Below are positions 33,284-63,249 of a stretch of DNA of 64,000 bases, in pieces. The stretch is from Squalus acanthias. Taxonomy: Eukaryota. The first letter of the stretch is position 1; every line of letters begins with the position of its first letter. Both the position numbers and the translations under genes were made by a program. A model generated the notes under the pieces. It saw only the letters and a program-made list of their open reading frames with translations, did no database searches and was not told where the DNA came from. The stretch spans positions 138,882,001 to 138,946,000 of the forward strand of contig CM059431.1 of NCBI GenBank assembly GCA_030390025.1, given 5' to 3'.

Positions 33284-33395
33284 AATGTGGTGACCAGAAA
33301 TGCACGCAGTATTCTAGCTGGGGCCTTACTAGTTCAAGCATAACTATGCTGCCTAGGCTTGGCCAATATGTTTTGCGGCTGTGCCGATGGAGTGT

Positions 33396-33420
33396 GGGTT
33401 AGGGTTAGGGTTAGGGTTAG
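33396..33420 (+). repeat. Short interstitial telomeric repeat GGG(TTAGGG)3TTAG
   Basis: GGGTTAGGGTTAGGGTTAGGGTTAG read directly. Confidence 0.9.
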
Positions 33421-35050: not shown

Positions 35051-35898
35051 AGTAAAACAGTGATTGTAAAACAGCAGGCAAATCTACCACTTTTATATAT
35101 ATGGCCATTTCTGAGATGGATAAATACTGTGAAAATATTCCACTAATCAATGCTGTGCATCACCTCACTGTTTATAGTTACATGATTCACAGCATTATAC
35201 ATTAGTGTTAATATTAGTGGAACAGCAGTAAATGGCCGCACCCCCTACAGAGCTCATCAGTCAGATGCTGACACCATGAGAGATATTGATCAATATAGAA
35301 GCACCAACCAGGACACATCTCCATGAACACACGGACAATGTCAAAACCCATAGAGACCAGAGGATCACACCCAGCGATATATTGTGTGTGTGGATAGATA
35401 TCATATTCATAAAGTACTGAAATTTAATATCAAAACTCAATCAAAAACTTTCAACACAAATCTGTGAATAAAAATAATCCAATACCATCAGACAGCGTAA
35501 AACCGAGTGGTGGAACATTCAATTCATCAATGATCACCCGCTCCATATTTCCCTGCAGAATATTCTCTACCTCAGGAATAAAGCTGGTTTTGGTCTGCAC
35601 TGTGTGAGTAAATCTCACCAATGGGCGCTCCCAGTGGGGAGTCTCTATCGACCCGTCTGGAACTCGATTGTGGAGATCAGCGGGACTCACTGGATTTCAC
35701 TGGGCAGCTGTCTGTGTCCCACCTGATGTGGAGAGTTGATCGTAACACTCGGGAACTGCTCGATCCCAGAGCAACAGTTGTTGTACTGATGGGAGAGGAG
35801 GCAAGGTACTCCTTCTCATTTTAATATTTCCATCTAACCCTCCTATCAATATTCTATTTATTACAGAGCAACAGAATCTAGGAACTCCTGTCACCACC

Positions 35899-35962
35899 AT
35901 GGCTGAAGTTCCAAACAGGGGAGAAGATCCAACATCTTCAACAAGAATGAGAATGGCCACAG
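35899..35962 (+). CDS. NLR coding exon 1 (MAEVPNRGEDPTSSTRMRMAT)
   Basis: Strong Kozak CCACCATGG, upstream acceptor TTATTACAG (35866), donor AG/GTAGG; 64 nt, phase 1, matching the next exon. Confidence 0.75.
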
Positions 35963-36305
35963 GTAGGTTCACAAAATTCTTTAAAAGATCATTTCTGTCC
36001 TGACAAAAGGTCCAGATCTCTTGCAATAACCTGCAGCTCACACAGAAAGTGGGAACAGGACAGGGGCTGAGTACAAAGAGCGAAGTAAGCGATCATCTCG
36101 AGCAGTCACAGGTGGAGGGAGACCCTGAGTACTGGAATTGTCCTAAAGATACCTGGTATTGGGGACTGTAAGGTGGAGAATGACAGTGACTCCATTGAGG
36201 GTCTTCCTGAGCAAAAGTTTGACACCAGGAGCAGGAGGTCACCCCGAGTGGGGCGAGGGTGAGAGGCAGGTGGGGCACAGGAATAGAACGGCGATAAACG
36301 ACCCT

Positions 36306-36737
36306 AACATGTAGAGTTCCAATTCTTTTAGTCTATCTTGAGAACTAAGATGCTTTAGACTGGGAATTATTCTAGTGGCCCTCCTCTGCACTCTTTCCAA
36401 GGCCTCAATATTACCCACCATGCGAGGAGACCAAAACTGGACACAATATTCCAAGTGAGGCCTGACCATGGTCTTGCAAAATACTATTCCTCGTCTTATA
36501 CCCAATTGTCATCTGAATGCACCCCAAAACCCTGTTTGCTCGAGCTTTCACTGCACGGTATTGCTCATGTATTTTTAGACATGTATGCACTAGAGAGCCC
36601 AGATCTTTCTTTCTCCACCTCCCTTACTGTTTCTCCATGAAGGGTGTATGAATGTTGAGCATTCACCCTGCCCACATGCACAATACTCCACTTATCAAAG
36701 TTAAACATAATTTGCCAGTCATCAGCACAATCTCCCA
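36306..36737 (-). mobile_element. Degenerate CR1 RT fragment in NLR intron
   Basis: MVRPHLEYCVQFWSP..ALERVQRRATRII..DRLKELELY; ADDWQIMFNFDK. Confidence 0.85.
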
Positions 36738-36933
36738 AAACATTACGAAACAGATTTGTTGAGATATGACTATACAGGCCAAAGGAATGTCTTACATGCG
36801 GTGTATAAGGGTTACCAGAAGCTGATGGATAATGTGGCTCACAGGAGGCTTCAGCCGATTGATATAAGAAGAAATGTAACCACCTGGGTAGAAAGTGGAT
36901 AACGTGTTTAATTTACTCAAGTTGGGTTCACAG

Positions 36934-37100
36934 ATCCGAACTCTACAATCACTCAATTCTTGACAAATTGCGACGATTACCAGCTGTTCCAGTTTACGAA
37001 ATTCTACCGGGACAGACTGGAACAGGCGATGGAAGGAGGGGTGGATGGAGTCAGCTCGCTGTTAACATACGAGAGGCATTTCAGTGGACAAGAACATCGG
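36934..37100 (+). CDS. NLR coding exon 2 (N-terminal half of CARD-like domain)
   Basis: Acceptor TTCACAG, donor CGG/GTAAGT; open as DPNSTITQFLTNCDDYQLFQFTKFYRDRLEQAMEGGVDGVSSLLTYERHFSGQEHR; phase 1 to 0. Confidence 0.82.
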
Positions 37101-37609
37101 GTAAGTGGGAGGGACACATAATTAGTTCGGATTATTTAAATATCACAGATCGGACAGGATATCAGATGTTAAAATGTTACTGAAGTGAAGCAGGCCAAAT
37201 ACGAACGAAATGGATAAAACTGAAAATATTCTGAATCTGAAACAATGATGCAATGATGTCAAAATACCCAGCGGAGCCGTCAGTATCTGTACAAAGGACA
37301 GGGGAATGGTTCGGTTATAAGTCATGTGTGGGCTGAAAACAAAGGGAAACAACTTTACTGGGACTGGGAAAAGGAGAGGCCAGAGGCAACAGACAGGAGT
37401 TAGAGGGAAGGTGAAAAAATAAAAACTACTTAAAGAAAATTAAGGAGCTGAGATGACAAAAATCATCTGCAGAGTGAATGAGAGGCATTTGAAGAACAAA
37501 AACAAAAATGTTAAAATGCACGAAACCCGAACAGGGAAACTAACCACAAAACTGTGGGGATTCAAAGACCGAGGCCGTGCAGGGTTTATTTTCTCCGCCA
37601 TACTTCACC

Positions 37610-37826
37610 GGGGTCAATTTTAACTTCGGCAGAGGCGCAATACGGGCAGTAGAACCAGTCGTGGAGCGACACTCCCCGGGAGAAAACTTCAGGAAATTAC
37701 AGCAAGCAGCCTATACTATTCTGTCAGTTAACTTCAATGGAATAGAAGTAAATGGAAATGATAATCGAGCAGGCTGTATAATGGACGGCCTATCAGCTAC
37801 CAGCAGTCAAGTTAAAAATCTAGGCA
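37610..37826. mobile_element. Possible degenerate MITE
   Basis: Imperfect terminal inverted repeats GGGTCAATTTTAACTT / AAGTTAAAAATCTAGGC about 215 bp apart. Confidence 0.3.
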
Positions 37827-37859
37827 ACCGAGTCCAATCCCAAACGTCGGCTCAAAATG

Positions 37860-40600
37860 CATTATCGTTAATATCCCACCTAATCTAATCCCAACCTCCT
37901 GCTCACTACCCATTACCGTTAATATCCCACTTAGTCTAATCCCAACCTCCTGCTCACTACCCATTACTGTTAATATCCCACCTAGTCTAATCCCAACCTC
38001 CAGCTCACTACCCTTTACTGTTAATATCCCAAATAGTCTAATCCCAACCTCCAGCTCACTACCCATTACTGTTAATATCCCACCTAGTCAAATCCCAACC
38101 TCCAGCTCACTACCCATTACTGTTAATATCCCACCTAGTCTAATCCCAACCTCCTGCTCACTACCCATTACTGTTAATATCCCACCTAATCTAATCCCAA
38201 CCTCCAGCTCTACCCATTACTGTTAATATCCCACCTAGTCTAGCCCAACCTCCAGCTCACTACCCATTACTGTTAATATCCCACCTAGTCTAAGCCCAAC
38301 CTGCTGCTCACTACCCATTACCGTTAATATCCCACCTAGTCTAATCCCAACCTCCTGCTCACTACCCATTACCGTTAATATCCCACCTAGTCTAATCCCA
38401 ACCTCCTGCTCACTACCCATTACCGTTAATATCCCACCTAATCTAATTCCAACCTACTGCTCACTGTCCATTATCGTTAATATCCCACCTAATCTAATCC
38501 CAAACTCCTGCTCACTACCCATTACTGTTAATATCCCACCTAGTCTAATCCCAACCTCCAGCTCACTACCCATTACTGTTAATATCCCACCTAATCTAAT
38601 CCCAACCTCCTGCTCACTACCCATTACTGTTAATATCCCACCTAATCTAATCCCAACCTCCAGCTCACTACCCATTACTGTTAATATCCCACCTAGTCTA
38701 ATCCCAACCTCCTGCTCACTACCCATTACCGTTAATATCCCACCTAGTCTAATCCCAACCTCCTGCTCACTACCCATTACCGTTAATATCCCATCTAATC
38801 TAATCCCAACCTACTGCTCACTGTCCATTATCGTTAATATCCCACCTAATCTAATCCCAACCTCCTGCTCACTACCCATTACTGTTAATATCCCACCTAG
38901 TCTAATCCCAACCTCCAGCTCACTATCCATTACTGTTAATATCCCACCTAATCTAATCCCAACCTCCTACTCACTACCCATTACTGTTAATATCCCACCT
39001 AATCTAATCCCAACCTCCAGCTCACTACCCATTACTGTTAATATCACACCTAGTCTAATCCCAACCTCCTGCTCACTACCCATTACCGTTAATATCCCAC
39101 CTAGTCTAATCCCAATCTCCTGCTCACTACCCATTACCGTTAATATCCCACCTAGTCTAATCCCAATCTCCTGCTCACTGCCCATTACCATTGATATCCC
39201 ACCTAATCTAATCCCAACCTCCTGCTCCCTACCCATTACCGTTAATATCCCACCTAGGCTGATCCCAACCTCCTGCTCACTACCCATTACTGTTAATATC
39301 CCACCTAGTCTGATCCCAACCTCCTGCTCACTACCCATTACCGTTAATATCCCACCTAGTCTGATCCCAACCTCCTGCTCACTACCCATTACTGTTAATA
39401 TCCCACCTAGTCTGATCCCAACCTCCTGCTCACTACCCATTACTGTTAATATCCCACCTAGTCTGATCCCAACCTCCTGCTCACTACCCATTACCGTTAA
39501 TATCCCACCTAGTCTAATCCCAACCTCCTGCTCACTACCCATTACCGTTAATATCCCATCTAATCTAATCCCAACCTACTGCTCACTGTCCATTATCGTT
39601 AATATCCCACCTAATCTAATCCCAACCTCCTGCTCACTACCCATTACTGTTAATATCCCACCTAGTCTAATCCCAACCTCCAGCTCACTATCCATTACTG
39701 TTAATATCCCACCTAATCTAATCCCAACCTCCTACTCACTACCCATTACTGTTAATATCCCACCTAATCTAATCCCAACCTCCAGCTCACTACCCATTAC
39801 TGTTAATATCTCACCTAGTCTAATCCCAACCTCCTGCTCACTACACATTACCGTTAATATCCCACCTAGTCTAATCCGAACCTCCTGCTCACTACCCATT
39901 ACCGTTAATATCCCACCTAGTCTAATCCCAATCTCCTGCTCAATGCCCATTACCGTTGATATCCCACCTAATCTAATCCCAACCTCCTGCTCACTGCCCA
40001 TTACCGTTAATATCCCACCTAGTCTGATCCCAACCTCCTGCTCACTACCCATTACTGTTAATATCCCACCTAGTCTGATCCCAACCTCCTGCTCACTACC
40101 CATTACCGTTAATATCCCACCTAGTCTGATCCCAACCTCCTGCTCACTACCCATTACTGTTAATAACCCACCTAGTCTGATCCCAACCTCCTGCTCACTA
40201 CCCATTACTGTTAATATCCCACCTAGTCTGATCCCAACCTCCTGCTCACTACCCATTACCGTTAATATCCCACCTAGTCTAATCCCAACCTCCTGCTCAA
40301 AACCCATTACTGTTAATATCCCACCTAGTCTGATCCCAACCTCCTGCTCACTACCCATTACCTTTAATATCCCACCTAGTCTAATCCCAACCTCCTGCTC
40401 ACTACCCATTACTGTTAATATCCCACCTAGTCTGATCCCAAACTCCTGCTCACTACCCATTACTGTTAATATCCCACCTAGTCGAAGTCCAACCTCCTGC
40501 TCATGGCTCATTACCGTTAATATCACAACAAGTCAAATCCCAAACTTCTGCTCATTACTCATTATGCTTAATAACCCACATCGTCAAATCCCAATCTTCT
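37860..40600. repeat. 51-bp minisatellite in NLR intron
   Basis: Consensus CCATTACTGTTAATATCCCACCTAGTCTAATCCCAACCTCCTGCTCACTAC; 17-aa periodic ORFs; 765-bp (15-unit) block duplication. Confidence 0.96.
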
Positions 40601-41049
40601 GTCCATTCGTCATAATCTATCTTTCGTTTATCCAAGCAACAAAATAATTGTCCAGTACAAAAAAAGTTGTCGACTTACTTCCACAATAGTTAAGTGAGTG
40701 AATTATGCTTTCTAACCACCTCGTGCATAATAGCGTTAAATGTTCTGCGCCTGAGATCTTGGTGTGGAACATCACTCCCCAGGGCAAAAGATCAGGAAAT
40801 TGAACTCATTCAGTCTGTCCTTTCCAGCTTCTGTGTTCTGAGTGTGGAACGTCACTCGCCAGGAGAACCGCAGGAAATTGAGCTTATTCAGTCTGTAATT
40901 TCTTGTCTGCTAACTTTAATGAATGGATTTCTACTTAATTTTGGGTACGGAGAGCAAAGCTGGGGTGAAATATTGAGAGTTGCATAATTTTATATTCGTT
41001 CACTCTTTAGAATATTTATAATAGATCCTGTCATTTATTTAGTTTGAAT

Positions 41050-41720
41050 TTTCCTCCAGTTAAACATTGGGAACATTGAAGCATTGGATTCCACCCCCAC
41101 CACAAACACCGTTTCACCATTTAATTTCGACCCCCTCCCCGGCCACTCTCTGATGCTGAACTTGACTGTTCTCAACCCCGCCGTACTATTTGCGTTCGAG
41201 CTGAGCTTCCGACTCCATATCCTCTCCATGACAAATACAGTAGACTTCATCTCCATAACATTACCCGTCTCCACCGCTATCTCAGCTCATCTGCTGCTGA
41301 AGCCCTGATCCGTGCCTTTGTCTCCTCTAAACTCAATTATTCCAATGCTCCCTTGGCCGGACTCCCTTCCTCCGCCCACGGCAAACTTCAGCTCATCCAA
41401 AACTCTGCTGCCTCTACGCTGTCCCGCCCAGGGCCCACTCCGCTATCACTCGTGTTCTCACTCACATGTTGTGACTCCTGGCCCTCGAATGCCTCCAAAT
41501 GAAAATACCCATCCTCCAGTTCAAATCCCCTCATGGCCTCCCACTTTCCGATCTCTGTAAACTCCAGCAGGCCTACAGCAGCCCCGCAACTCTAGAATTA
41601 CCTGTTCCTCTAACTGTGGCACACCCTCCCCGCCTTCACCAGTGTTGGCCGAGCATTTAGTTGCATAAGGCCCCATGCTCTGAAATTCACTCCTCTCTGC
41701 CTTCAGCTCCTCCTTAACAA
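41050..41720 (+). mobile_element. Degenerate L2 LINE fragment
   Basis: FLQLNIG..EA, FHLHNITRL, ALIRAFVSSKLNYSNA, KLQLIQNSAA: L2 RT C-terminal motifs with frameshifts. Confidence 0.75.
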
Positions 41721-41997
41721 TTAGCAATTTCACGGAGTGTTACTCTAACTATTAATATCTCATCCTTCTTGTTCTAGTTTCACCATATTGATTTCCCATC
41801 ATTGCCTTAATTCAGGACGTTTACAGAATATTCATCCCCTATTCAGAATGGATCAATACCCAGTACCCAGGCCCACTGACTGCTTTCTATGCACAAAACA
41901 ACTGGGAGACCCCATGACTGAGCAGATCCTTTCCTTCTCATTCTCAGGGTTTGTATTTCACTCCGCTCCTCAATACATTCATTATTATTCGTTACAG

Positions 41998-42169
41998 AAA
42001 GTCACTGAGCTCGTGGAGAAGGGAAACCGGGCGGACAGTTCCAAACTCCTCCTAAATCTGGTGATGGAGAAAGGCTCTCGGGCCCGAAGGATGATGTGGG
42101 AATCCTTTGTGAAAATGCGCCATGGGGTGCCAAAGCTGGACAAAATACTGAAAGAAATGCAAGAACGTG
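41998..42169 (+). CDS. NLR coding exon 3 (C-terminal half of CARD-like domain)
   Basis: Acceptor GTTACAG, donor G/GTACGG; KVTELVEKGNRADSSKLLLNLVMEKGSRARRMMWESFVKMRHGVPKLDKILKEMQER; phase 0 to 1. Confidence 0.85.
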
Positions 42170-42274
42170 GTACGGTAAAATCACTCACTGAATTCAATTT
42201 CAGATTCAAACTCTGCAGAATTTATTATAATATTACACAGATCTGAGTTCATGAAATTTAATTGATTTAAACAG

Positions 42275-42340
42275 GTTCTGAACCAATTGATTACATGAAC
42301 ATCGCACGAGGTTTATCCAAAGTACCCACTCACCTGAAAG
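42275..42340 (+). CDS. NLR coding exon 4 (linker GSEPIDYMNIARGLSKVPTHLK)
   Basis: Acceptor AAACAG, donor AAG/GTCAGT; 66 nt, phase 1 to 1, joins the NACHT exon as ..HLK-DVQQKH. Confidence 0.78.
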
Positions 42341-42619
42341 GTCAGTGATGACATGGAGATTTCAAACCATTTCTGTTACATCTGAGAATCAGAATATTTG
42401 ACTGTAGCCATTTGTTCAGAGGTTGTCATTATCTTGGAATCATACGGTCAAAGGCTGAGGATAAAAAATAAATGTTTCTCTGGAGTTTTCAATCTGAAAA
42501 TCTTCTGTGTAAATTGCAGTTACCATTCGGTGAGATTTCTGAATTTTTCTAAATTTGCAGATTTTTTTATTACTCCAGTAAATCCAGGTGCAGATTGCTA
42601 TCAGTTGTGAAACTCCATC

Positions 42620-43620
42620 TAAACCTGGCAGGATCCTGGTTCACTGTGAAACCCCATACACATCTGGCAGAATTCCGATACACTGTGAAAACCCAAACAC
42701 ACCTGGCAGAATCCCGATACATTGTGAAAACCCCATACACACCTGGCAGGATTCTGATACACAGTGAAACTTCATGCACACCTGGTAGGATCCCGATACA
42801 CTGCGATACCCTATACACACCTGGCAGGATCCCGATATAATGTGAAACAACATAATTACCTGGTAGGATCCCGATACATTGTGAAACCATATACAGACCT
42901 GGCAGGATCCCGACACACTGTGAAAACTATACAAACCTCGAAGGATCCTGATACACTGTGAAACTCCATACACACCTGGCAGGATCCTGATACACTGTGA
43001 AACCCAATATAAGCATGAGAGGATACTGATACACTGTGAAACCCCATACACTACTGGCAGGATCCTGATACACTGTGAAACCACATACAAACCTGGCAGG
43101 ATCCTGATACACTGTGAAACCCCATAGACACCTGCAGTATCCCGATAGACTGTGAAACGCCTTACACACATGGCAGGATCCTGATACACTATTAAACCCC
43201 ATACACACCTGGCAGGATCCCTATACACTATGAAACCCCATACACACCAGGCTGGATCCCTATACACTGTGAAACCCCATACACACTTGGCAGGACAACG
43301 ATACATTGTGAAACCCCATACACACCTGACAGGATGCTGACTCACTGTGAAACCCCATACACACCTGGCAGGATACTGATACACTGTGAAACCCAAGACA
43401 TACCTGGCACGATCCTGAGACACTGCGATACCCCATACATACCTGGCAGGATCGTGGTACTCTATGAAACCCCAGACCCACCTGGCAGGATCCTGATACA
43501 CTGTGAAATCCCATACACACGTGGCAGGTTCCTGATAAACTGTGAAACCCCATACTGACCTGACAGGATCCCGATACATTGTGAAACGCCATACACACCT
43601 GAGAGGTTCCTGATATACAG
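42620..43620. repeat. 39-bp satellite, array 3 (inside NLR intron)
   Basis: Same unit and orientation as arrays 1 and 2. Confidence 0.95.
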
Positions 43621-44671
43621 CGAAAGAAAGGACCGTGAGCCTGATGTTGAAGTTACTGTGCCACTGGGTTTCTATTCTAGCATAAGCTGTCGGAAAAATG
43701 CTTGAGAAATGGGAAACAGTGAAGTATTTTCATTGTACATCACATCATGAACCGTCGATTGTGTTCGATCCAGTCTGAGAAGACGTGCAGATGTTCACAC
43801 AATCAATCATTAACTGAGGAGGAACATGCAGAAAAGGCCATGTTATGCATGATTAGGACTTGATTGGACCGATTCCACCTGGCAGTGAAACAGACAAACT
43901 AGGCACAGAGAAGCTTATTGTATTGAAGGAAGCGTCTTTTCATTCAGGAGGATTTTGAATCACAATTTACTGATTATCAGAATCATATTTTTAATTTTCA
44001 AAACTTATTGTAGGAAACTCGTATCCAAATGAAAAGACGGAGTGGAATTATTGTTACAGTTCAAATGACCTCTCAATCTTTTCTTCTCTAACGTAATACT
44101 GAGTGAAATGGACGGTAGTTTTATTTCTGATTCTAATCGGTTACTTGATGAGACTGTTATATGAAGAAAAGAATGTGAGTGTAAAATCACTGAAAAACTG
44201 TTCACATTTTGTGAAACACAACAGGAGGAGGTTTAAGGGAACAAAAGACCACTTTGGTTAAAACAATTCTGCCCCTGTTAGAGATGAACCCACATGCCCC
44301 TCCTCTCAGTGTAGCCACTTAAGCAAAAACAATTGTCCCTTGTCCCCACTTACACTGCCGCTTAGTGTCCTCTTACTAATATTTTTTGAAAAAGATGAGC
44401 CTGATTTCCCTTCTAACTCCTGGCTTCCACATGTCAGTTATGTCTATTAATAGATTGTGCTCGTTAAGTTTCTTTCCTGTTATAATTTAGGGAATTCTGT
44501 TGGAACATCTGGTCAATATTTCAATATTCGAACAATCTTCTTGAAAACAAAACAAGTCATTTGCCGCAACTTTTGCTCTGCCTTAATTCCTGTTGCACAT
44601 AATCATCTTATTTCTCTCTGCACATTCACCGATTCAAAAATATTTATCCTGTGAATACACGTGCAAACAAT

Positions 44672-47600
44672 ACCTGCCCAGGACCTGACACACTAACGGT
44701 GGAACTTCTGTCCTTTCACAATCTGTCCCTCTCCCAGTGCCCACACTACTCCAGATAACCTGCGCTGGATCTGACACACTAACGGTGGAACTTCTGTCCA
44801 TTCACAGTCTGTCTCTGTCCCAGTGAGCCCACTACCACAGATAACCTGCCAAGGACCTGACACACGAACGGTGGAACTTCTGTCCATTCACAGTCTGTCT
44901 CTCTCCCAGTGAGCACACTACCCCAGATAACCTGTCCAGGAGCTGACACACTAACGGTGGAACATCTGCACATACACAGTCTGTCCCTCTCCCAGTGCCA
45001 AACTGCCCCAGATAACCTGCCCAGGACCGGACACACTAACGGTGGAACTTCTGTCCATTCACAGTCTGTCCCTCTCCTAATTCACACACTACCCCAGATA
45101 ACCTGGCCAGGACCTGACACACTAACGGGGGAACTTCTGTCCATTCACAGTCTGTCCCTCTCCCAGTGCCCACACTACACCAGATAACCTGCGAAGGATC
45201 TGACACACGAACGGTGGAACATCTGTCCATTCACTGTCTGTCTCTCTCCCAGTTAGCACACTACCCCAGATAACCTGTCCAAGAGCTGACACACTAACGG
45301 TGGAACATCTGCACATACACAGTCTTTCCCTCTCCCAGTGAGCACACCAGCCCAGATAACCTGTCCAGCAGCTGACACACTAACGGTGGAACTTCTGCAC
45401 ATTCACAGATTCTCCCTCTCATGTGCCCACACTACCACAAATAATCTTCCCATGAGCTGACACACTAACGCTGCAACTTCTGTACATTCACAGTCTGTCC
45501 CTCTCCCAGTGCCCACAGTACCCAAATAACCAGCCCAAGGCCTGACACACTAACGTGGAAATTCTGTCCATTCAAAGTATGTCCCTCTCCTAATGCAAAC
45601 ACTACCCCAGATAACCTGCCCACGACCTGAAACACTAACGTGAAAATTATATCCATTCACAGTCTTTCCCTCTCCTAATGCACACACTACCCCAGATACT
45701 CTGCCCAGGAATTGCCACACTAACGAGATAAATTCTGTACATTCACAGTCTTTCCCTCTCCCAGTGCCCACACTAACACAGATAATCTGCCCAGGACCTG
45801 ACATACTAACGGTGGAACTTCTATCCATTCACAGTCTGTCCCACTCCCAATGCATTCACTATCCCAGGTAACCTGCCCAGGACCTGACACACTAACGTGT
45901 AAATTCTGTCCATTCACAGTCTGACCCTTTCCCAGTGCCCACACTACCCCTGATAACCAGCCCAGGAGCTGGCAAACTAACGGTGGAACTGCAGTACATT
46001 CACTCTTTCCCTCTCCCAGTGTCCAAACTACACCAGATAACGTGCCCAGGTCCTGACGCACTAACTGATAAACTTCTGCACCTTCACAGTCTTTCCCTCT
46101 CCCAGTGCCCACACTACCCCAGTTAATCTGCCCAGGACCTGACACACTAATGGTGAAAATTCTGTCAATTCACAGTCTCACCCTCTCCTAATGCACACAC
46201 TACCCCAGAGAACCTGCCCAGGACCTGACACACTAACGAGGGACTTTCTGTCAATTCACAGTCTGTCCCTTTCCCAAGGCCCACACTGCCCCAGATAACC
46301 TGCCCAGGACCTGACACACTAACGGTGGAACTTCTGTCCATTCACAGTCTGTCCCTCTCCCAGTGCCCTCAATACCCCAGATAACCTGCGCAACAACTCA
46401 CACACTAACGGTGGAACTTCTGTCCATTCACAGTCTGTCCCTCTCCCAGTGCCCACAATGCCCCAGATAATCTGCCCAGGACCTGACACACTAACGGTGG
46501 AACTTATGTACATTCACAGTCTGTCCCTCTCCTAATTCACACACTACCCCAGATAACCTGCACAGGACCTGACACACTAACGGTGGAACTTATGTACATT
46601 CACAGTCTGTCCCTCTCCTAATTCACACACTACCCCAGATAACCTGCCAAGGACCTGACACACTAACGGTGGAACTTCTGTACATTCACAGCCTGTCCCT
46701 CTCCCAGTGCCCACACTACCCCAGATAACCTGCCCAGGACCTGACACACTAACGGTGGAACTTCTGTCCTTTCACAGTCTGTCCCTCTCCCAGTGCCCAC
46801 ACTACTCCAGATAACCTGCGCTGGATCTGACACACTAACGGTGGAACTTCTGTCCATTCACAGTCTGTCTCTCTCCCAGTGAGCACACTACCACAGATAA
46901 CCTGCCCAGGACCTGACACACGAACGGTGGAACTTCTGTCCATTCACAGTCTGTCTCTCTCCCAGTGAGCACACTACCCCAGATAACCTGTCCAGGAGCT
47001 GACACACTAACGGTGGAACATCTGCACATACACAGTCTGTCCCTCTCCCAGTGCCAAACTGCCCCAGATAACCTGCCCAGGACCGGACACACGAACGGTT
47101 GAACTTCTGACCATTCACAGTCTGTCTCTCTCCCAGTGAGCACACTAGCCCAGATAACCTGTCCAGGAGCTGACACACTAACGGTGGAACATCTGCACAT
47201 ACACAGTCTGTCCCTCTCCCAGTGCCAAACTGCCCCAGATAACCTGCCCAGGACCGGACACACTAACGGTGGAAATTCTGTCCATTCACAGTCTGTCCCT
47301 CTCCTAATTCACACACTACCCCAGATAACCTGGCCAGGACCTGACACACTAACGGGGGAACTTCTGTCCATTCACAGTCTGTCCCTCTCCCAGTGCCCAC
47401 ACTACACCAGATAACCTGCGAAGGATCTGACACACGAACGGTGGAACATCTGTCCTTTCACAGTCTGTCTCTCTCCCAGTTAGCACACTACCCCAGATAA
47501 CCTGTCCAGGAGCTGACACACTAACGGTGGAACTTCTGTACATTCACAGTCTGTCCCTCTCCCAGTGGCCACAGTACCCAAATAACCAGCCCAAGGCCTG

Positions 47601-50600
47601 ACACACTAACGTGGAAATTATGTCCATTCAAAGTATGTCCCTCTCCTAATGCAAACACTACCCCAGATAATCTGCCCACGACCTGACACACTAACGTGAA
47701 AATTATATCCATTCACAGTCTTTCCCTCTCCTAATGCACACACTACCCCAGATACTCTGCCCAGGAATTGCCACACTAACGAGATAAATTCTGTACATTC
47801 ACAGTCTTTCCCTCTCCCAGTGCCCACACTAACACAGATAACCTGCCCAGGACCTGACATACTAACGGTGGAACTTCTATCCATTCACAGTCTGTCCCAC
47901 TCCCAATGCATTCACTATCCCAGGTAACCTGCCCAGGACCTGACACACTAACGTGTAAATTCTGTCCATTCACACTCTTTCCCTCTCCCAGTGTCCAAAC
48001 TACACCAGATAACGTGCCCAGGTCCTGACTCACTAACTGATAAACTTCTGCACCTTCACAGTCTTTCCCTCTCCCAGTGCCCACACTACCCCAGTTAATC
48101 TGCCCAGGACCTGACACACTAATGGTGAAAATTCTGTCAATTCACAGTCTCACCCTCTCCTAATGCACACACTACCCCAGAGAACCTGCCCAGGACCTGA
48201 CACACTAACGAAGGAACTTCTGTCCATTCACAGTCTGTCCCTTTCCCAAGGCCCACACTGCCCCAGATAACCTGCCCAGGACCTGACACACTAACGGTGG
48301 AACTTCTGTCCATTCACAGTCTGTCCCTCTCCCAGTGCCCTCAATACCCCAGATAACCTGCGCAACAACTGACACACTAACGGTGGAACTTCTGTCCATT
48401 CACAGTCTATCCCTCTCCCAGTGCCCACAATGCCCCAGATAACCTGCCCAGGACCTGACACACTAACGGTGGAACTTCTGTCCATTCACAGTCTGTCCCT
48501 CTCCCAGTGCCCTCAATACCCCAGATAACCTGCGCAACAACTGACACACTAACGGTGGAACTTCTGTCCATTCACAGTCTATCCCTCTCCCAGTGCCCAC
48601 AATGCCCCAGATAACCTGCACAGGACCTGAAACACTAACGGTGGAACTTCTGTCCATTCACAGTCTGTCCCTCTCCCAGTGCCCACACTACCCCAGATAA
48701 CCTGCCAAGGAGCTGACACACTAACGGTGGAACTTCTGTACATTCACTCCTTCCCTCTCCCAGTGTCCAAACTACCCCAGATAACCTGCCCAGGAGCTGA
48801 CACACGAACGGTGCAACGTCTGTACATTCACAGTCTGTCCTTCTCCCAGTGCCCACACTAACCCAGATAAACTGCCCAGGACCTGACACACTAACGGTGC
48901 AACGTCTGTACATTCACAGTCTGTCCCTCTACCAATGCCCACACTACCCAGATAACCTGCCCACGACCTGACACACTAACGTGGAAATTCTGTCCATTCA
49001 CAGTCTGTCCCTCTCCTAATGCACACACTACCCCAGATAACCTGCCCAGGACCTGACACACTAACGGTGGAAAATCTGTACATTCACAGTCTGTCTCTCT
49101 CCCAGTGTCCACACTTCCCCAGATAACCAGACTAGGAACTGACACACTAACGGTGGAACTTCTGTACCTTCACAGTCTGTCCCTCTCACAGTGCCCACAC
49201 TATCCCAGATAACCTGCCCAAGACCTGATACACTATCTGTGGAACTTCTGTCCATTCACAGTCTGTCCCTCTCCCAGTGCCCAAACCAGCACAGATAACC
49301 TGCCCAAGGTCTGAAACACGAACGGTTGAATTTCTGTACATTCACAGACAGTCCCACTCCCAATGCCTTCACTAACCCAGATGCACTGCCCAGGAGTTGA
49401 TACACTAACGCTGGAACCTCTGTTCATTCACAGTCTGTCCCTCTCCCAGTGCCCACACTACCCCAGATAACCTGCCCAGGACCTGACACACTAACGGTGG
49501 AACTTCTGTACATTCACAGACTGTCGCTCTCCCAGTGCCCACACTACCCCAGATAACCTGCCCAGGACCTGACACACTAACGGTGGAACTTCTGTACATT
49601 CACAGACTGTCGCTCTCCCAGTGCCCACACTACGGCAGATAACCTGCCCAGGACCTGACACTCTAACGGTGGAACTTCTGTCCATTCACAGTCTGTCCCT
49701 CTCCAGTGTCCACACTACCCCGGATAACCTGCCCAGGACCTGACACACTAACGGTGGAACTTCTGTACATTCACAATCTGTCCCTTTCCCAGTGCCCACA
49801 CTACCCCAGATAACCTGCCCAGGGCCTGACACACTAACGGTGGAACTTCTGTACATTCACAGTCTGTCCCTCTCCCAGTGAACACACTACCCCAGATAAC
49901 ATGAACAAGGTCTGACACACTAACGGTGAAACCTTTGTAAATTCACAGACTGTCGCTCTCCCAGTGCGCACACTACTGCAGAAAACCTGCCCAGGATCTG
50001 ACACACTAACGGTGAACCTTCGGTTCATTCACAGTGTGTCCCTCTCCCAGTGCACACACCAACCCAGATAACCTGCCCAGGACCTGACACACTAACGGTG
50101 GAACTACTGTACATTCACAGTCTGACCCTCTCCCAGTGCCCACACTACCCCAGATAACCTGCCCAGGCCCTGACACACTAAGTTGTAAACTTCTGTCCAT
50201 TCACAGTCTGACCCTCTCCCAGTGCCTGCAGTACCCCAGATAACCAGCCCAGGACCAGACATACTAACGGTGGAACGTATGTACATTCACAGTCTGTCCA
50301 TCTTCCAGTGCACACACTAACCAGATAAACTACCCAAGGTCTGACACACTAACCGTGGAGCTTCTGTACATTCACAGTCTGTCCCTATCCCAATGCCCAC
50401 ACTATCCCAGATAACCTGCCCAATGACTTACACACTAACGGTGGAACATCTGTACATTCGCAGACGGTCCCTCTCCCATTGCCCACACTACCCCAGATAA
50501 CCTGCCCAGGACCAGACACACTACCGGTGTAACTTCTGTACATTCACAGTATGTCCCTCTCCCAGTGCACACACTGCCCCAGATAACCTGTCCACGGCCT

Positions 50601-51600
50601 GAACACTAACGGTGGAACTTCTGTACATTCACAGTCTGTCCCTCTCCCAGTGAACACACTACCCCAGATAACATGAACAAGGTCTGACACACTAACGGTG
50701 AAACCTTTGTAAATTCACAGACTGTCGCTCTCCCAGTGCGCACACTACTGCAGAAAACCTGCCCAGGATCTGACACACTAACGGTGAACCTTCGGTTCAT
50801 TCACAGTGTGTCCCTCTCCCAGTGCACACACCAACCCAGATAACCTGCCCAGGACCTGACACACTAACGGTGGAACTACTGTACATTCACAGTCTGACCC
50901 TCTCCCAGTGCCCACACTACCCCAGATAACCTGCCCAGGCCCTGACACACTAAGTTGTAAACTTCTGTCCATTCACAGTCTGACCCTCTCCCAGTGCCTG
51001 CAGTACCCCAGATAACCAGCCCAGGACCAGACATACTAACGGTGGAACGTATGTACATTCACAGTCTGTCCATCTCCCAGTGCACACACTAACCAGATAA
51101 ACTACCCAAGGTCTGACACACTAACCGTGGAGCTGCTGTACATTCACAGTCTGTCCCTATCCCAATGCCCACACTATCCCAGATAACCTGCCCAATGACT
51201 TACACACTAACGGTGGAACATCTGTACATTCGCAGTCGGTCCCTCTCCCATTGCCCACACTACCCCAGATAACCTGCCCAGGACCAGACACACTACCGGT
51301 GTAACTTCTGTACATTCACAGTATGTCCCTCTCCCAGTGCACACACTGCCCCAGATAACCTGTCCACGGCCTGACACACTAGCGGTGGAATTTCTGTACA
51401 TTCACAGTGTGACCCTCTCCCAGTGCTCGCACTCGCGCAGAAAACCTGCCCTGACACAGCTACGGTGGATCTTCTGTCCATTCAAAGTCTGTCCCTTTCC
51501 CAGTGCCCACTCTACCCCAAATAATATGCCCAGGACATGACACAGTAAAGGTGGAACTTCTGTACATTCTCAGTCTGTCCCTCTCACAGTGCGCACACTT
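44672..51600. repeat. 86-bp minisatellite in NLR intron
   Basis: Consensus CCCAGATAACCTGCCCAGGACCTGACACACTAACGGTGGAACTTCTGTCCATTCACAGTCTGTCCCTCTCCCAGTGCCCACACTAC; block duplications at offsets ~2056-2227 and 772. Confidence 0.96.
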
Positions 51601-51601
51601 C

Positions 51602-52273
51602 CGAAAAATGCAATGGAATGTTGGCCTTTATTGCAAGGGTGGTTGGAGTATAAAACAAAGAAGTCCTACTACAAATGTACAGGGTATTGGTTAGACCACA
51701 CCTTCAGTACTTCGTACAGTTTTGGTCTCCTTATTTAAGGAAGGATATACTTGCATTGGAGGCAGTTCAGAGACGATTCAACGGTTGATTCCTGAGATGA
51801 GGGGGTTGGCCTATGAAGAATGGTTGAGCAGGTTGGGCCTATACTTATTGGAATTTAGAAGAATGAGAGGTGATCTTACGGTAACATATAAGATACTGAG
51901 GGGGCACGACAAGGTAGATGCAGAAAAGATATTTCCGCTCGTGGGGAAATCTAGAACTCGGGGGCATATTTTCAGAATAGAGGGTCGCCCTTTTAGAACT
52001 GAGATGAGGAGGAATTTCTTCTCTCAGTGGGTCGTAAACCTGCGGAATTCTCTGCCCCAGAGCGTCGTGGAGGCTGGGTCATTAAACGTTTTAGTCTGGA
52101 GATAGACAGATTTTTGCAAGCTAAGGGAATGAAGTGTTATGGGGAATGGGCGGTGAAGTGGCTTTGAGCCCAAGATAAGCCATGATCAATTGAATGGCGG
52201 AGCAGGCTCGAGGGGCCAAGTGGCCTATTCCTGCTCTATTTCTTATGTTCTTATGTGCTTATGTTCTTATGTT
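51602..52273 (+). mobile_element. CR1 3' fragment inserted in the 86-bp array
   Basis: NGMLAFIA, LVRPHL, EFRRMRGDL, FRTEMRRNFFSQ; CR1 3'UTR and (TTATGTTC)n tail. Confidence 0.93.
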
Positions 52274-52620
52274 ACCCCAGGTAAACTCCCCAGGACCTGA
52301 CACACTAACGGTGGAACCTCTGTACATTCACAGTCTACCCGTCTCCCAGTACCCACACTAACCCCAGATAACCTGCCCAAGACCTGACACACTAACGGTG
52401 GAACTTCTGTCCATTCGCAGCCTTTCCCACTCCCAGTGCCCACACTACCCAAGATAACCTGACACACTAACGGTGGAACTTCTGTACATTCACAGTCTGA
52501 CCCTCTCCCAGTGCCCACACTACCCAAGATAACCTGACACACTAACGGTGGAGCTTCTGTCCATTCACAATCTGTCCCCCGCCCAGTTCCCACACTACCC
52601 CAGATAACTTGCCCAAGGTC
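52274..52620. repeat. 86-bp minisatellite, right remnant (includes shortened units)
   Basis: Same unit resumes after the CR1 tail. Confidence 0.9.
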
Positions 52621-53077
52621 TAATAACGTAACAGTGGATCTTCAGCACATTGCCTCTCTCGTTGATCAACCAATCCCTTTTTCCATTGCTGCAGAAGGGA
52701 AGCACCACTGACAGTTTCAGAGATTGATCCCCTAAACCTCTAAAGTCGTATAAACAATATCATGTGTGGATTTATAATGGAATTCTGTAGCACAGGGCAA
52801 GCCGGATAGTGTTAACCATCGGGGAAAATATGACTTTCATAGAAATCTCCTTGTTCAGTGAATAATAGAATTAAGTGAGGATTTGAAACGTTTCCCGGCC
52901 ACTGTTCACGTTCAAGCGAGGTTTCCATTAACTGAGTTTTAATTTATACACACACCTCTATTGAATCTGGGAATTAAATCTTGCAACATTGTATTGAAGA
53001 GTGAAATGGTACTGATAAGTTGTTTTTTGTCAGTACAACTAACATTAAGACTTTTTTTCTGCCTGTTAAAATTGAAG

Positions 53078-54815
53078 ATGTTCAACAGAAACACAGGGAA
53101 ACACTCCGGGTACAAACTGAAACACTGAGAGTGAACACTATCCTAATAAAGGAGAAGGTTAAAATTTTCCAGCTGGTTGATCGATACGCTGAGCTAACGG
53201 TCATTTCTACTGTTCGAGATCGGACACTTGTAGAACATGAACTGCTGGCAAGAGGCCGAGACCATGAACAGTGGAGAGCGAAACATCTCTGGAGAGAGCT
53301 GGAAAAAATCCGAACTGATCAATTGTTCCAGAGCAGTTTTTCCCATAGAAAATCCAAATCTGGGAGTTCAGGAGCAGTGAGCGGAGTCCCGGGGATTGGA
53401 AAAACAACAATGGTACAAAAGATTGTTCATGACTGGGCCACTGGGAAAATATACCCACACTTTCAATTTGTTTTCAGCTTTAAATTCCGGGATTTGAACG
53501 CTATTAACTGTAGAATAAATCTGAGGAATCTGATCCTGGATCTGTATCCTTACTTTGGGAATATTCTGGGAGAGCTCTGGAAGAACCCAGAGGGATTGCT
53601 GTTTATATTCGATGGTTTGGATGAATTCAAAGACAAGATCGATTTTGCTGACAATCGCAGAAATATAGAACCTCAGCACATGTGCACAGATCCCGAAGAC
53701 TGGTGTGAAGTGTCTGACATTGTGTACAGTTTAATACAGCACAAGCTGCTCCCAGGATGTTCAGTGCTAGTGACCAGCCGCCCCACTGCATTGCATTTAT
53801 TGGAAAAGGCTGAGATCAGTATCTGGGCTGAAATCTTGGGATTTGTTGGTGAAGATCGGAAGGAATATTTTAACAAATTTTTTGAAGATCAGACGGTGGC
53901 AGCAGCTGTTTCCAAACACGTGGAGGAGAACGAGATCCTGTACACCATGTGCTACAACCCTTCCTACTGCTGGATCCTCGGCCTCTCACTGGGCCCCTTC
54001 TTTACACAAAAAGACAGGAATCAGCAGCGAGTTCCCAAGACCATCACCCAACTATATTCCTATTATATTTACAATATTCTGAAAAACCATGGCCGAGAGA
54101 TTGAAAGTCCCCGTGATGTGTTACTGAAGATTGGGGACATGGCCTTCACAGGAGTCTCAGAGAAAAAGATTGTGTTTAGAAATGGAGATTTGATCAAGTA
54201 CAATCTGCAACCTTCCCAGTTCCTGTCTGGGTTCATGATGGAACTTTTGGAGAGAGATGATTCTGCCCAGAGCATGGTATACACATTCCCGCACCTCACC
54301 ATCCAAGAGTTTGTATCCGCACTCGCTAAATTCCTGACTCCAGATCCCGGGGACATCCGGAAACTCCTCAGAGAATCCCACAGCAAGGAAGATGGGCGAT
54401 TTGAGATATTTCTCCGTTTTGTTGCTGGTCTCTCCTCCCCACAGGCAGCTCGGCCCCTGGAGGAGTTTTTGGGTCCATTTCTTCATCAAACTACCTGCCG
54501 AGTGATTGATTGGGTGAAGGAGAATGTTGAAGGACAGATTGGAAAATCAGAGAGTAAAACTGCTAAAAGGAACCTCCTGAACACATTCCACTACTTGTTT
54601 GAGTCTCAGAATAAAGCACTGGCTCGGAAAACAGTCGGATCGGTGGAATCACTTACATTTAGTGAATTGACATTGACCCCAATTGATTGTGCGGTCCTGT
54701 CTCATGTTATTGGACTCTGTGATACAATAAAAGAACTCGATCTAGAGTTCTGCTCCATTCAGTGTGAAGGACTCCGGAGGCTGGGACCAGTACTGCACAA
54801 ATGCAGAGTGTTGAG
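53078..54815 (+). CDS. NLR coding exon 5: NACHT NTPase, winged helix/HD2 and first LRR (NLRC3/NLRP-like fish-type NLR)
   Basis: Walker A GVPGIGKT, FSFKFRDLN, Walker B LLFIFDGLDE, sensor VLVTSRP, FPHLTIQEF, FLRFVAGL, LFESQN, LRR start IKELDLEFCSI. Acceptor TTGAAG (53077); phase-2 donor AG/GTAAC. Confidence 0.95.
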
Positions 54816-55316
54816 GTAACTGTTTATATGTCTCTGACTGTTGGGCGAATTGTAGAGCAGTCACGGATTGTGCTGTTGCTCCGTAATGAAGGGAAACAAG
54901 CAGTTCAGTTAAACCAGAGAGAAGCAGATTCAACACAAATATGACCAATAATAAGAGGATCGGTTAGTAATTCCCTATGGACTGGAGAATCTAAAATGGA
55001 TTTTGCAGTCTTTTGCAGATCACCAAATACAGGCCACTGAGAGTCTGATAATTAATTACAATATATCATAATTAATAAGGCAGGACAGCGGAATGTAAAC
55101 ATAAAATGAAGATAAAATTAATTTAAAATATTTTCCACAACCACCATTTCAACTGGAAACAGGACAGAAACCCAAGTTTAAATCACTAACAGTTCGATAT
55201 TTACTCCAGTACCGTGCAGGGTGTGTTTTGTTGAGGGGGATGTTTCCTGGATTGGGAATATTAGAAAATCGGGAATTCTTTCATGTGTAAATGTTTTCAA
55301 TTATAAAAAGTCCTGA

Positions 55317-58300
55317 ACATAGATACATAGATACATAGAAGATAGGAGCAGGAGTAGGCCATCCGGCCCTTCGAGCCTGCTCCGCCATTTAATGAGATCA
55401 TGGCTGATCCTTCAATTCAGTATCCCGTCCCCGCCTTCTCTCCGTAACCCTTAACCCCTTTTGCCTGTAGAAATATATCTAATTCCCTCTTAAATATATT
55501 TAATGAGCTGGCGTACACTGCCCTCTGTGGCAATGAGTTCCACAGGTTCACCACTCTCTGAGTGAAGAAATTCCCCCTCATTTCTGTCCTAAATGGTTTA
55601 GCCCTTATCCTTAAATTATGTCCTCTAGTTCTGTTCTCACCCGCCAAGGGAAACATTCCTTCTGCATCTAATCTGTCTAGACCTGTCAGAATTTTATACA
55701 CTTCTATGAGGTCCCCTCTCAATCTTCTAAACTCCAGTGTGTACATCCCTAAACTACATAGTCTCTCCTCATAGGTCAATCCCGCCATTCCTGGTATCAG
55801 CCTGGTGAATCGCCGCTGCACCCCCTCCATGGCAAGAACATCTTTCCTCAGATGAGGCGACCAAAACTGTACACAGTACTCGAGGTGTGGTCTCACCAGT
55901 GCCCTGTACAGCTGCAGCAAGGTATCCCTGTTCCTGTATTCCAACCCTTTTGCTATGAAGGCCAGCATACCGTTTGCCTTCTTGACCGCCTGTTGCACCT
56001 GCATGCTCGCCTTCAGTGACTGGTGTACAAGAACACCCAGGTCTCTCTGTACTTCCCCCTCTCCCAATTTATTGCCATTTAAATAATAATTTGCCCTCCC
56101 GTTCCTGCACCCAAGGTGGATAACTTCGCACTTGTCCACATTATAGTGCATCTGCCATTTATCCGCCCAATCACCCAGTCTGTCCAAATCGCTCTGGAGC
56201 TTCCTGGTCTCCTCCTCTGAGCCCACCCCCCCTCCTAGTTTAGTGTCGTCTGCAAATTTGGAAATGCTGCATTCGACTCCCTGATCCAGGTCATTAATAT
56301 AAATTGTGAACAGCTGGGGACCCAGGACAGATCCCTGTGGTACCCCACTTGTTACTGCCTGCCATTCAGAAAATGAGCCGTTTATTCCAACTCTCTGTTT
56401 TCTATCTGACAGCCAGTTCTCTATCCACGTCAATACTTTCCCCTTTATCCCATGAGCTTCAATTTTCCATGCTAATCTTTTATGTGGGACCTTATCGAAG
56501 GCCTTTTGGAAGTCCAGGTACACCACATCTACTGGCTCTCCCCCATCTATTTTACCAGTTACTCCCTCAAAAAATTCCAATAGATTAGTCAAGCACGATT
56601 TACCCTTTGTAAATCCATGTTGACTCTGTCCTATCCTGTCCCCATTTGCTAAGTGCTCGGCTATTTCATCCTTAATGATGGACTCCAGCATTTTGCCCAC
56701 AACTGATGTAAGGCTTACAGGTCTGTAATTACCTGCTTTTTCCCTACCCCCCTTTTTGAATAGTGGGGTAACGTTAGCTACCCTCCAATCCATGGGCACT
56801 GTTCCCGAGTCTAATGAATTCTGAAAAATCATGCTTAGTGCATCCGCTATCTCTAGGGCCACCTCCTTCAGTACCCTAGGATGCATGTTATCAGGCCCTG
56901 GGGATTTGTCCGCCTTCAATCCCTTTAGCTTCCTTAACACCATATCCTTAGAGATATTGATTTGCGTCAGTTCCTCCTTTGCCAATGTCCCTATTTTTCC
57001 CGATATCCCAGGGAGGTTTTTTGTGTCTTCCTTCGTAAAGACTGACCCAAAGTATGCATTTAGTTGGTCTGCCATTTCCTTATTTCCCATTATATATTCC
57101 CCCGTATCTGACTGCAATGGACCAACTTTGGTTTTCACCAGTCTTTTCCTCTTGATATACTTATAAAAGCTTTTGGAGTTAGTTTTTATATTTTCCGCCA
57201 GCTTGCTTTCGTAAGCTATTTTGCCCTTCTTGATTAAGCCCTTTGCCCTCCTTTGCTCTATCTTAAACTGTTCCCAATCTTCCGCTCTGGCGCGTTTTTT
57301 GGCTATTTTATACGCCCTATCTTTGGATTTTATGCTGTCTCTAATTTCCCCTGTTATCCACGGTTGAGTCACCTTTTTAGATTTCCTTTTATGCCAGATT
57401 GGTATAAACAATTTTTGCAATTTTGTCATTCTATCTTTAAATGCTTGCCATTGTTTATCTACCTCCAGTCCTCCCAGGAACGTTGTCCAATCAGACCTAC
57501 TCAGTTCCCGTCTAATGGCATCATAATTCCCCTTGTTTAAATTCAGGACCTGAGTCTCTGAGTCAATTTCTTCGCTCTCCATTTCGAGTGAGAAATCGAT
57601 CATGTTATGATCGCTCTGACCCAAGGGTCCCCGTACAACAAGATTACTAATTAGTCCCTTCTCATTGCACAGTACCCAGTCCAATATAGCCTGTTCCCGA
57701 GTTGGTTCCTCGACATATTGATCCAGATAACCATCCCTTAAACACTCAAGGAATTCCTCCTCCTCATTATTTTTACTGATTAGGCTAGTCCAATCTATAT
57801 GTAAGTTAAAGTCACCTATGATGACAGCTGTGCTCTTATTGCACGCTTCTCTAATTTCCCTCGTGATGCCCTCCCCAACCTCTATTTTACTATTTGGAGG
57901 CCTATATACCACTCCTATTAATGTTTTTCGCCCCTCGCTATTTCTTAGCTCCACCCATATAGATTCTGTATTAACTGAGTTAATATCCTTCCTTTCAATT
58001 GCATTTATCCCCTCTTTTACCAGCAATGCTACCCCTCCTCCCTTTCTTTTTTGTCGATCCTTCCTAAATACTGAATACCCCTGTATGTTAAGCTCCCAGC
58101 CCTGCTCACCCTGCAACCATGTTTCCGTAATCCCAATTAGATCATAATTATTAACCTCTATTTCCACAGCTAATTCATCTACCTTGTTCCTGATGCTTCT
58201 CGCATTAAGGTATAAAACCCTCAGGCTTTTTTTATGCTCACATTTTTTATGAATTAGTTTGGCCCTTTGTTTTTTGTTCCTCTCCTTTTTACCATTTATT

Positions 58301-62212: not shown

Positions 62213-62230
62213 ATCCCACTTCTGACAATA
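62213..62230 (-). other. Primer-binding site (tRNA-Leu-like) of an LTR element
   Basis: Minus strand TATTGTCAGAAGTGGGAT versus the tRNA-Leu PBS TGGTGTCAGAAGTGGGAT (16/18), 1 nt after a ..CATACA end. Confidence 0.6.
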
Positions 62231-62231
62231 C

Positions 62232-63045: not shown

Positions 63046-63249
63046 CTGTTCACTTTCCAAGCTCAGAATCTGTTGCTTACAGCATTTGGAAGACAGATTG
63101 AGCCTTATGCAGGTGTAAGTGTGTGGAGCAAACTCTCTATCCATTGTCCCCTCAATGGAACAACCTCACTCACCATTAACAAATTACTTCTGTCATCTCA
63201 AGTTCACTTGCCATCTATTACATCAGCATGGGTACGGTTTACACTGTCT

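Follow-up and report, generated by a model that had tools for sequence, protein, structure and literature searches.

Receptors of the NLRP3 and NLRC4 type stay closed until a signal permits nucleotide exchange and the assembly of a ring. How such receptors are fronted in cartilaginous fishes has been touched on in two surveys. Tan et al. 2021 (PMC8455134) described an NLRP-related jawed-vertebrate NLR family that is expanded in the whale shark, where true NLRPs are scarce, suggested that this expansion supplies inflammasome activators, and assigned the teleost NLR expansion to another clade. The same paper reports that sharks have NOD1 and NOD2 orthologues of their own. Billman et al. 2024 (PMC11258412) found N-terminal CARDs on white-shark NLRP3-like proteins and an NLRC4 of the sharks' own. 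Among CARD proteins, CARD8 binds caspase-1 directly, NLRC4 can use either ASC or caspase-1, and the CARDs of both can nucleate caspase-1 without ASC (PMC7794362). Here we describe a spliced gene of the shark Squalus acanthias that lies in the second half of a 64,000-nucleotide stretch (contig CM059431.1, positions 138,882,001 to 138,946,000, forward strand; the window) and runs past its end. The gene joins a predicted CARD, lengthened at its N-terminal end by one helix, to an NLRP-type NACHT and ribonuclease-inhibitor-type LRRs, and it belongs to a multicopy family present in cartilaginous fishes and some bony vertebrates. Its product is probably a cytosolic inflammasome sensor that recruits caspase-1, either directly or via the CARD of ASC.

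With the expansion of Tan et al. the window gene shares an NLRP-related NACHT, strong expansion in sharks and a proposed role in inflammasomes. From the NLRP likeness and the expansion we infer that the two are the same family, a comparison made by description rather than sequence; the N-terminal domain is undescribed in the excerpts of that paper. The white-shark proteins of Billman et al. likewise have the order CARD-NACHT-LRR and belong to a set expanded in sharks, and XP_041029885.1, from the sequence list of that study, is a member of the window gene's family. In its excerpts the study relies on domain scans and gives neither a structure nor a map of the exons, and it mentions neither the extra helix nor the range of the whole family. 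Automatically annotated shark proteins in the databases share the N-terminus and have a NACHT exon 81-90% identical to that of the window; their name implies a PYD, whereas the domain they carry is predicted to be a CARD, and the search for a PYD gave nothing. This single-CARD gene is thus a plain member of a large, already annotated family, and its CARD-first design is already in print. A preliminary description of the stretch had supposed such a family to be poorly characterised, which is true of its function but not of its architecture (PMC11258412) or its exon chain, which is found in the automatic gene models of other sharks. What appears to be new is the same hidden CARD in proteins of chimaera, bichir, lungfish, caecilian and newt; a search of the literature outside subscription journals turned up nothing on the extra helix, on how the exons are arranged or on members in amphibians, lungfish and bichirs.

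The coding chain was read directly from the plus strand, with residues numbered from the Met encoded at the ATG at 35899 and positions above 64000 continuing the window numbering downstream. Five exons of 64 (counted from this ATG), 167, 172, 66 and 1,738 nt join into 2,207 nt without a stop; AG precedes exons 2 to 5, GT follows all five, and the phases are 1, 0, 1 and 1. The coordinates, GT-AG sites, phases and open length given in the preliminary description therefore all hold on the sequence. Exon 2 (36934..37100, phase 1-0) encodes residues 22-77, which comprise the extra helix 0, CARD helices 1a, 1b and 2 and the start of helix 3; exon 3 (41998..42169, phase 0-1) encodes residues 78-135, with the remainder of helix 3 and CARD helices 4-6. 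Exon 4 (42275..42340, phase 1-1) supplies a linker, residues 135-157, and exon 5 (53078..54815, phase 1-2) encodes residues 157-736, with a FISNA-like stretch, NACHT, winged helix, HD2 and the first LRR. When 15 AG sites were tried as the exon 5 acceptor, the frame was open at 53078 and 53132 only, and homologues agree with 53078. The donor GT at 54816 opens intron 5, which occupies 54816..64000 and extends beyond the window end.

Conservation at related loci argues that this chain did not arise by chance. The AG and GT of exon 2 are kept in 30 of 30 fetched paralogous loci, and those of exons 3 and 4 in 8 of 8 loci, the window and its near-identical copy being included in both counts. A protein search with the NACHT exon gave 1,607 matches among the 7,987 candidates scored, of which the best 120 (81-90% identical) were considered; residues 25-170 are covered by 86 of these 120 listed homologues. 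Several shark database proteins align without gaps across residues 1-175 (for example, 150/175 identical).

The 5′ end differs from the first proposal, in which 35899-35962 was a first exon carrying the start codon. The exon begins at an acceptor at 35867 and is therefore internal, spanning 96 nt (35867..35962, plus strand); no stop interrupts the frame between this acceptor and the ATG, the acceptor is also kept in the sister copy described below, and in relatives' contigs both the depth and the loose ends begin there. The ATG at 35899, with the context ACCACCATGG, is still the likely, though not certain, start codon: 57 of the 120 listed homologues have the same first Met, but some database models extend further upstream. 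No counterpart of the upstream exon in the relatives' contigs was found in the window.

Splicing was followed in contigs of sequencing runs. Among runs on record as RNA, none contains the window stretch; the best matching runs share 0.2-0.33 of the sampled words and so represent relatives or paralogues, and that their contigs derive from RNA is a guess. The exon 1-exon 2 joint (971 nt, GT..AG) is present in the contigs of three of four runs, and loose ends ahead of exon 3 match the end of exon 2 in three of the four; the remaining run covers introns and resembles DNA. Intron 3 (105 nt, GT..AG) is bridged in one run, with matching loose ends in three, and after exon 4 loose ends match the start of exon 5 in two runs. 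Between them the relatives' contigs show all four junctions, and coverage piles up on the exons. For the RNA check proposed at the outset, every predicted junction was thus seen in contigs of relatives, guessed to be RNA, and none of the listed runs shows the window copy: the junctions show the splice pattern of the family, not transcription of this copy. Two runs each have a contig that, at 41996-41998, links an upstream exon straight to exon 3, bypassing the first half of the CARD, and 10 of the 120 listed database models begin at Met 100, inside the CARD. A CARD-less isoform is possible.

The N-terminal domain was modeled on a Mustelus homologue, identical at 103 of 120 positions over residues 21-140 and folded with 54 sequences. 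The model is confident, with block values of the predicted local distance difference test (pLDDT) of 91-98 for residues 31-130, and shows helices at residues 23-33, 36-45, 47-54, 58-67, 73-84, 88-102, 104-117 and from 122 onward. The domain spans residues 23-134; residues 1-22, encoded by the ATG exon, form a variable, low-confidence leader. The predicted fold of the homologue has the six helices of a death fold, the first of them kinked, and resembles CARDs more closely than death domains, PYDs or DEDs. In a wide structural search, 32 of the 33 top rows were CARDs or CARD-containing chains and the remaining one was a de novo design. The NLRC4 CARD led with a Z score of 11.8 (root mean square deviation [rmsd] 2.9, 89 residues aligned), followed by CARD8 (Z 11.6, rmsd 2.0, 87 aligned), ASC (Z 11.1, rmsd 2.1, 90 aligned), ARC (Z 11.0), the caspase-1 CARD (Z 10.9, rmsd 1.9, 88 aligned) and the NOD1 CARD (Z 10.7-10.8). 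The best death domain reached Z 7.4, and no PYD structure appeared in 50 rows. A Z under about 13 can reflect an arrangement common in helical proteins; here the matches span whole target domains and exceed those to other death folds. The first seven Foldseek rows were likewise CARDs, with target template modeling (TM) scores of up to 0.81, none of them reaching an expectation value (E) of 0.001. CARD matches begin at about residue 32-40, and the helix at 23-33 is therefore an addition to the CARD.

On the strength of these models, the N-terminal domain is predicted to be a CARD with one extra N-terminal helix. The preliminary description, which took the N-terminus for a divergent CARD or death fold and held that any fold other than a six-helix death fold would count against this, was right in kind, the homologue model being a six-helix CARD; the domain nevertheless starts about 20 residues earlier than supposed and carries the extra helix. 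The phase-0 intron between exons 2 and 3, also pointed out there as splitting the domain, cuts the CARD inside helix 3. Conservation is highest in helices 1b and 4, and variability is greatest in the extra helix and across helices 2 and 3. Within the CARD proper, the segment running from helix 2 through its loop into helix 3 varies most, with entropies of 1.2-1.5 bits vs. 0.6 for helices 1b and 4.

Sequence scans were the other check suggested for the N-terminus. Pfam matches nothing, PYRIN included, in exons 2 and 3, nor in the N-terminus of any of the eight full-length homologues scanned; the domain of the window gene does not pass the curated cut-off of PF00619. Of 54 short members, 10 match Pfam CARD weakly, at E values of up to 1 and 0.0033 at best, and two tandem-copy ray proteins alone pass the cut-off, by summed score. 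A family profile agrees with the CARD fold: run against 1.84 billion representative proteins, it gave 119 matches, and Pfam-positive CARDs stand at the weak end of these, at E 1e-6 to 5e-4. Also at that end are proteins with a C-terminal Pfam CARD, two of them named as lamprey and two with TNF-receptor cysteine-rich repeats. Compared by sequence with solved structures, the profile returned two chance rows and no real match. A language-model atlas called CARD at 0.81, under its 0.9 level and thus a lead only. Profile comparison with the ASC/NLRP1-like CARD of the same genome was weak (probability 22%, E 0.001), and comparison with its caspase-1-like CARD and with PYD gave nothing.

The module that follows is of NLRP type. 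Pfam recognizes NACHT (E 2.8e-37), NLRC4_HD2 (2.1e-15) and NOD2_WH (8e-12) in exon 5, and the NACHT motifs are intact: Walker A (53383), Walker B (53596), sensor 1 (53770) and the winged-helix histidine motif (54286). The nearest solved structure is NLRP3 (E 1.8e-49, 172 bits), with other NLRPs next; 35 of 37 solved-structure matches at E 1e-5 bear NLRP-type names, NLRP3 first, and NLRC4 is absent among the 37. The entry 5IRM, which we take to be rabbit NOD2, reaches 91 bits. In this comparison the NACHT is closest to NLRP3, not to NOD1, NOD2 or NLRC4. The FISNA-like stretch aligns to NLRP3 from exon 5 residue 4; Pfam has no FISNA match in exon 5 and weak ones, below its cut-off, elsewhere in the family, at E 0.013 in one member and 7e-5 in another.

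Neighboring genome stretches past the window contain seven LRR exons at 64530-66514 on the plus strand, the first of 87 nt, the next five of 171 nt each and the last of 167 nt; a short last exon with the stop codon follows from 66691. The five 171-nt exons are all in phase 2, and a 171-nt exon encoding two repeats is the NLRP3 pattern (PMC6642158). The predicted product has about 1,135 residues. Of the LRR and B30.2 exons that were to be sought beyond 64000, the former were thus found and the latter were not: there is no B30.2 downstream, the stop codon follows the last LRR exon, and neither PRY nor SPRY is listed for any of the 120 NACHT-exon homologues.

Human and mouse NLRP3 accordingly offer the nearest solved NACHT, FISNA-like stretch included, and have the 171-nt two-repeat LRR exons in common with the window gene, but NLRP3 has a PYD and needs ASC, whereas the window gene is fronted by a predicted CARD. 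The two families are separate, since amphibian and lungfish members score 522-611 bits against the window NACHT exon vs. 172 for NLRP3. NLRC4 has the same CARD-NACHT-LRR order and supplies the top structural match to the CARD, a match that starts after the family's extra helix. Teleost NLR-C proteins, with FISNA and often B30.2, resemble the family in their lineage-specific clustered expansion and in the weak FISNA likeness of two members; the window gene differs in lacking B30.2. The gene therefore combines the NACHT and LRR of an NLR and the N-terminal CARD of the NLRC architecture with an NLRP-type NACHT and LRR, and it has no N-terminal PYD.

The family is large in this 3.7-Gb genome assembly. 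There are 441 candidates for exon 3, of which the 150 scored were 88-100% identical with a stop in none, and 389 for exon 2, the 150 scored being 84-100% identical with a stop in one. The copy number of each CARD exon is therefore at least 150 as scored, and these counts may include haplotype duplicates because a near-identical sister copy of the gene exists. Across 25 distinct copies, exon 2 has a pN/pS of 0.39, a value biased low because the copies were chosen by protein likeness. The sister copy (contig C1406:139388-168117) has all 13 exons in the same order; its NACHT exon is 98.7% identical (11 of 578 residues different), its minisatellites differ in length, and it is either an allele on an unplaced contig or a recent duplicate. 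The expanded chondrichthyan family of CARD-NACHT-LRR receptors envisaged in the preliminary description is borne out by these copies, the LRR exons, the predicted CARD fold and the cartilaginous-fish homologues.

Candidate partners are encoded as well: the genome carries caspase-1-like, ASC/NLRP1-like and RIPK2 CARD exons, plus PYD exons. None of the 11 PYD matches in the genome falls inside the window gene. Seven PYD-like exons lie inside an NLR cluster at 141.9-144.5 Mb of contig C7; that PYD exons of the same cluster were swapped onto the CARD family was rejected for three of them, with no NACHT or LRR match in the 180 kb around. On contig C21, at least six similar CARD exons lie at 12.1-13.3 Mb, with a PYD exon nearby at 11.86 Mb.

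Beyond Squalus, the N-terminal domain is present in 87 of the 120 listed NACHT homologues and in 86 of 97 shorter proteins from sharks, rays, skates and Callorhinchus. A 277-residue Callorhinchus model consists of the CARD domain (60/120 identical) followed by the pre-NACHT stretch; excerpts of a recent report credit Callorhinchus with 98 NLRs, no CARD-NLR and no ASC (bioRxiv 10.64898/2026.07.03.736391). A domain-only profile, for which reversed controls gave at most 9 bits, matched the CARD-position stretches of NACHT proteins from caecilian (E 7e-13), newt (4e-13) and lungfish, the last being XP_043915145.1 (E 3.5e-7), reported to be without an N-terminal domain (PMC11258412). A search with the caecilian N-terminus gave eight matches: caecilians, a newt, one unnamed protein and two elasmobranchs. 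Bichir proteins are weak by the domain-only profile (E 0.3-31) and align column for column with the family; a bichir model is a CARD with a preceding helix, with Z up to 10.7 for CARDs, 6.2 for death domains and 5.5 for PYD. With Foldseek, CARDs came 12th and lower for this model, yet were the sole rows with a probability above 0.5. Membership of the bichir proteins, which rests on alignment and predicted fold rather than on profile score, is accordingly put forward as probable. Bichir NACHTs score 357-422 bits against the window exon. Names were looked up for 30 of the 119 representative profile matches; the named rows include no amniote and a single teleost, a fragment that combines tandem CARDs with FISNA. 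Many rows are unnamed, so amniote and further teleost members could exist.

A NACHT tree, built by a quick search and including no NLRP or outgroup sequence, places proteins of Heptranchias and Pristiophorus as the nearest listed relatives of the window NACHT and groups the bichirs with a Heterodontus paralogue (Shimodaira-Hasegawa-like approximate likelihood ratio test, 99; no outgroup). CARD-only or truncated database models are common in the family. Some family proteins, the named ones from rays, have two or three tandem copies of the CARD, and bamboo-shark proteins carry the CARD domain at the C-terminus.

How would such a receptor act? By analogy with known NLRs, the LRR and HD2 would keep the NACHT closed, and a signal would bring about ADP-ATP exchange and ring assembly. 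The clustered CARDs would then nucleate a CARD filament, and caspase-1, once recruited, would cleave IL-1 family cytokines and a gasdermin; many copies could widen the range of what is sensed. An inflammasome output is favored because the NACHT and LRR are NLRP-type and true NLRPs are reported to be scarce in the whale shark (PMC8455134). Several points weigh against a caspase-1 sensor. The fold is predicted on homologues, not on the window gene's own product, and filaments might be unable to form their contacts past the extra helix. The best CARD matches, all 12-22% identical, lie so close together (about 1 Z) that they name no partner, and RIPK2 is encoded in the genome too; both the partner and the function of the CARD are putative. 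The contigs behind the RNA support belong to other species or to paralogues and are RNA by guess. Finally, as assembled, the last LRR donor (66514-66515) is one G short compared with the sister copy.

The alternative that fares best keeps the gene and the fold but has the CARD signal as in NOD1 and NOD2, nucleating RIPK2 filaments and leading to NF-kB and cytokine transcription instead of caspase-1. The RIPK2 CARD exon, the tie of the NOD1 CARD (Z 10.7-10.8) with the top structural rows and the tandem-CARD members in rays, as in NOD2, are all consistent with it. Set against these are a NACHT with 172 bits to NLRP3 and far from NOD-type structures, LRR exons of NLRP type, and the separate NOD1 and NOD2 orthologues already reported for sharks (PMC8455134), and we regard RIPK2 signaling as unlikely. 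Slightly less probable again is that these proteins sense or dampen without using their own CARD for signaling, with helix 0 or the variable helix 2-3 face preventing filaments and the output passing through a helper such as NLRC4, or with the proteins serving as decoys. The variability of helix 2, loop and helix 3 fits this idea, as do the 10 of 120 listed models starting at Met 100, the contigs of two runs that join an upstream exon to exon 3, and the common CARD-only or truncated models. Yet the domain is kept from sharks to amphibians, the pN/pS of exon 2, even if biased low, is 0.39, and database models without some parts may be annotation fragments. That the family functions while the window copy is silent or damaged is improbable: a young, fast-turnover family will hold dead copies, the listed runs, at no more than 0.33 of sampled words, do not show this one, and its one-base shortfall is either an assembly slip or a last-exon frameshift, but the shortfall falls in a G run where the sister copy has one more base and would shift only the last exon (about 29 C-terminal residues), the 11 coding exons upstream of it all read open between canonical sites, and the NACHT motifs are intact. 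A CARD-fronted sensor acting through caspase-1 is therefore the reading we retain.

The introns of the gene were described beforehand as filled with minisatellites, which is correct for two of them. Intron 2 contains a 51-bp minisatellite of 53.8 copies (37860..40601; 26.5 copies in the sister copy), covering 2,742 of 4,897 nt (56%). Intron 4 contains a 39-bp minisatellite of 25.9 copies (42606..43615) and an 86-bp minisatellite of 80.9 copies (44672..51599; 51.3 copies in the main array of the sister copy); minisatellites fill 8,258 of its 10,737 nt (77%). Introns 1 and 3 have none. We read these arrays as passengers that alter intron length only. The region 5′ of the gene (21-11595, 14080-27514 and 28926-34343) is occupied by large 39-bp and 21-bp minisatellite arrays and fragments resembling long interspersed nuclear elements (LINEs), and the upstream 39-bp unit is that of intron 4. 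Intron 5 holds a LINE-type element on the minus strand (55420-58443), with a 1,008-codon stop-free frame encoding endonuclease and reverse-transcriptase domains, and a second reverse-transcriptase remnant lies at 59968-60846. The next paralogue, about 74 kb past the window end (138103-160851), has two copies of its first two exons, which are part of a duplicated unit of 12.6 kb.

For the biology of the family, the immediate consequence is that a large shark NLR set is named for a PYD that it lacks and that its CARD escapes Pfam scans. A CARD missed in this way fits the accounts, in the excerpts of the respective papers, of a lungfish NLRP3-like protein without an N-terminal domain (PMC11258412) and of a Callorhinchus without CARD-NLRs (bioRxiv 10.64898/2026.07.03.736391). 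A bolder proposal, which we offer tentatively and think rather doubtful, is that these proteins form the principal branch of an old family of NLRP-type sensors in jawed vertebrates (chimaera, sharks, rays, bichirs, lungfish, caecilians and newts) that have a helix-extended, scan-invisible CARD in place of a PYD and are wired to caspase-1 without ASC. If so, Callorhinchus, reported to lack both ASC and a CARD-NLR, would gain a canonical inflammasome, and the PYD of NLRPs would be a later swap onto a CARD-type ancestor. With the boundaries of the domain known (residues 23-134), caspase-1 activation in cartilaginous fishes becomes directly testable.

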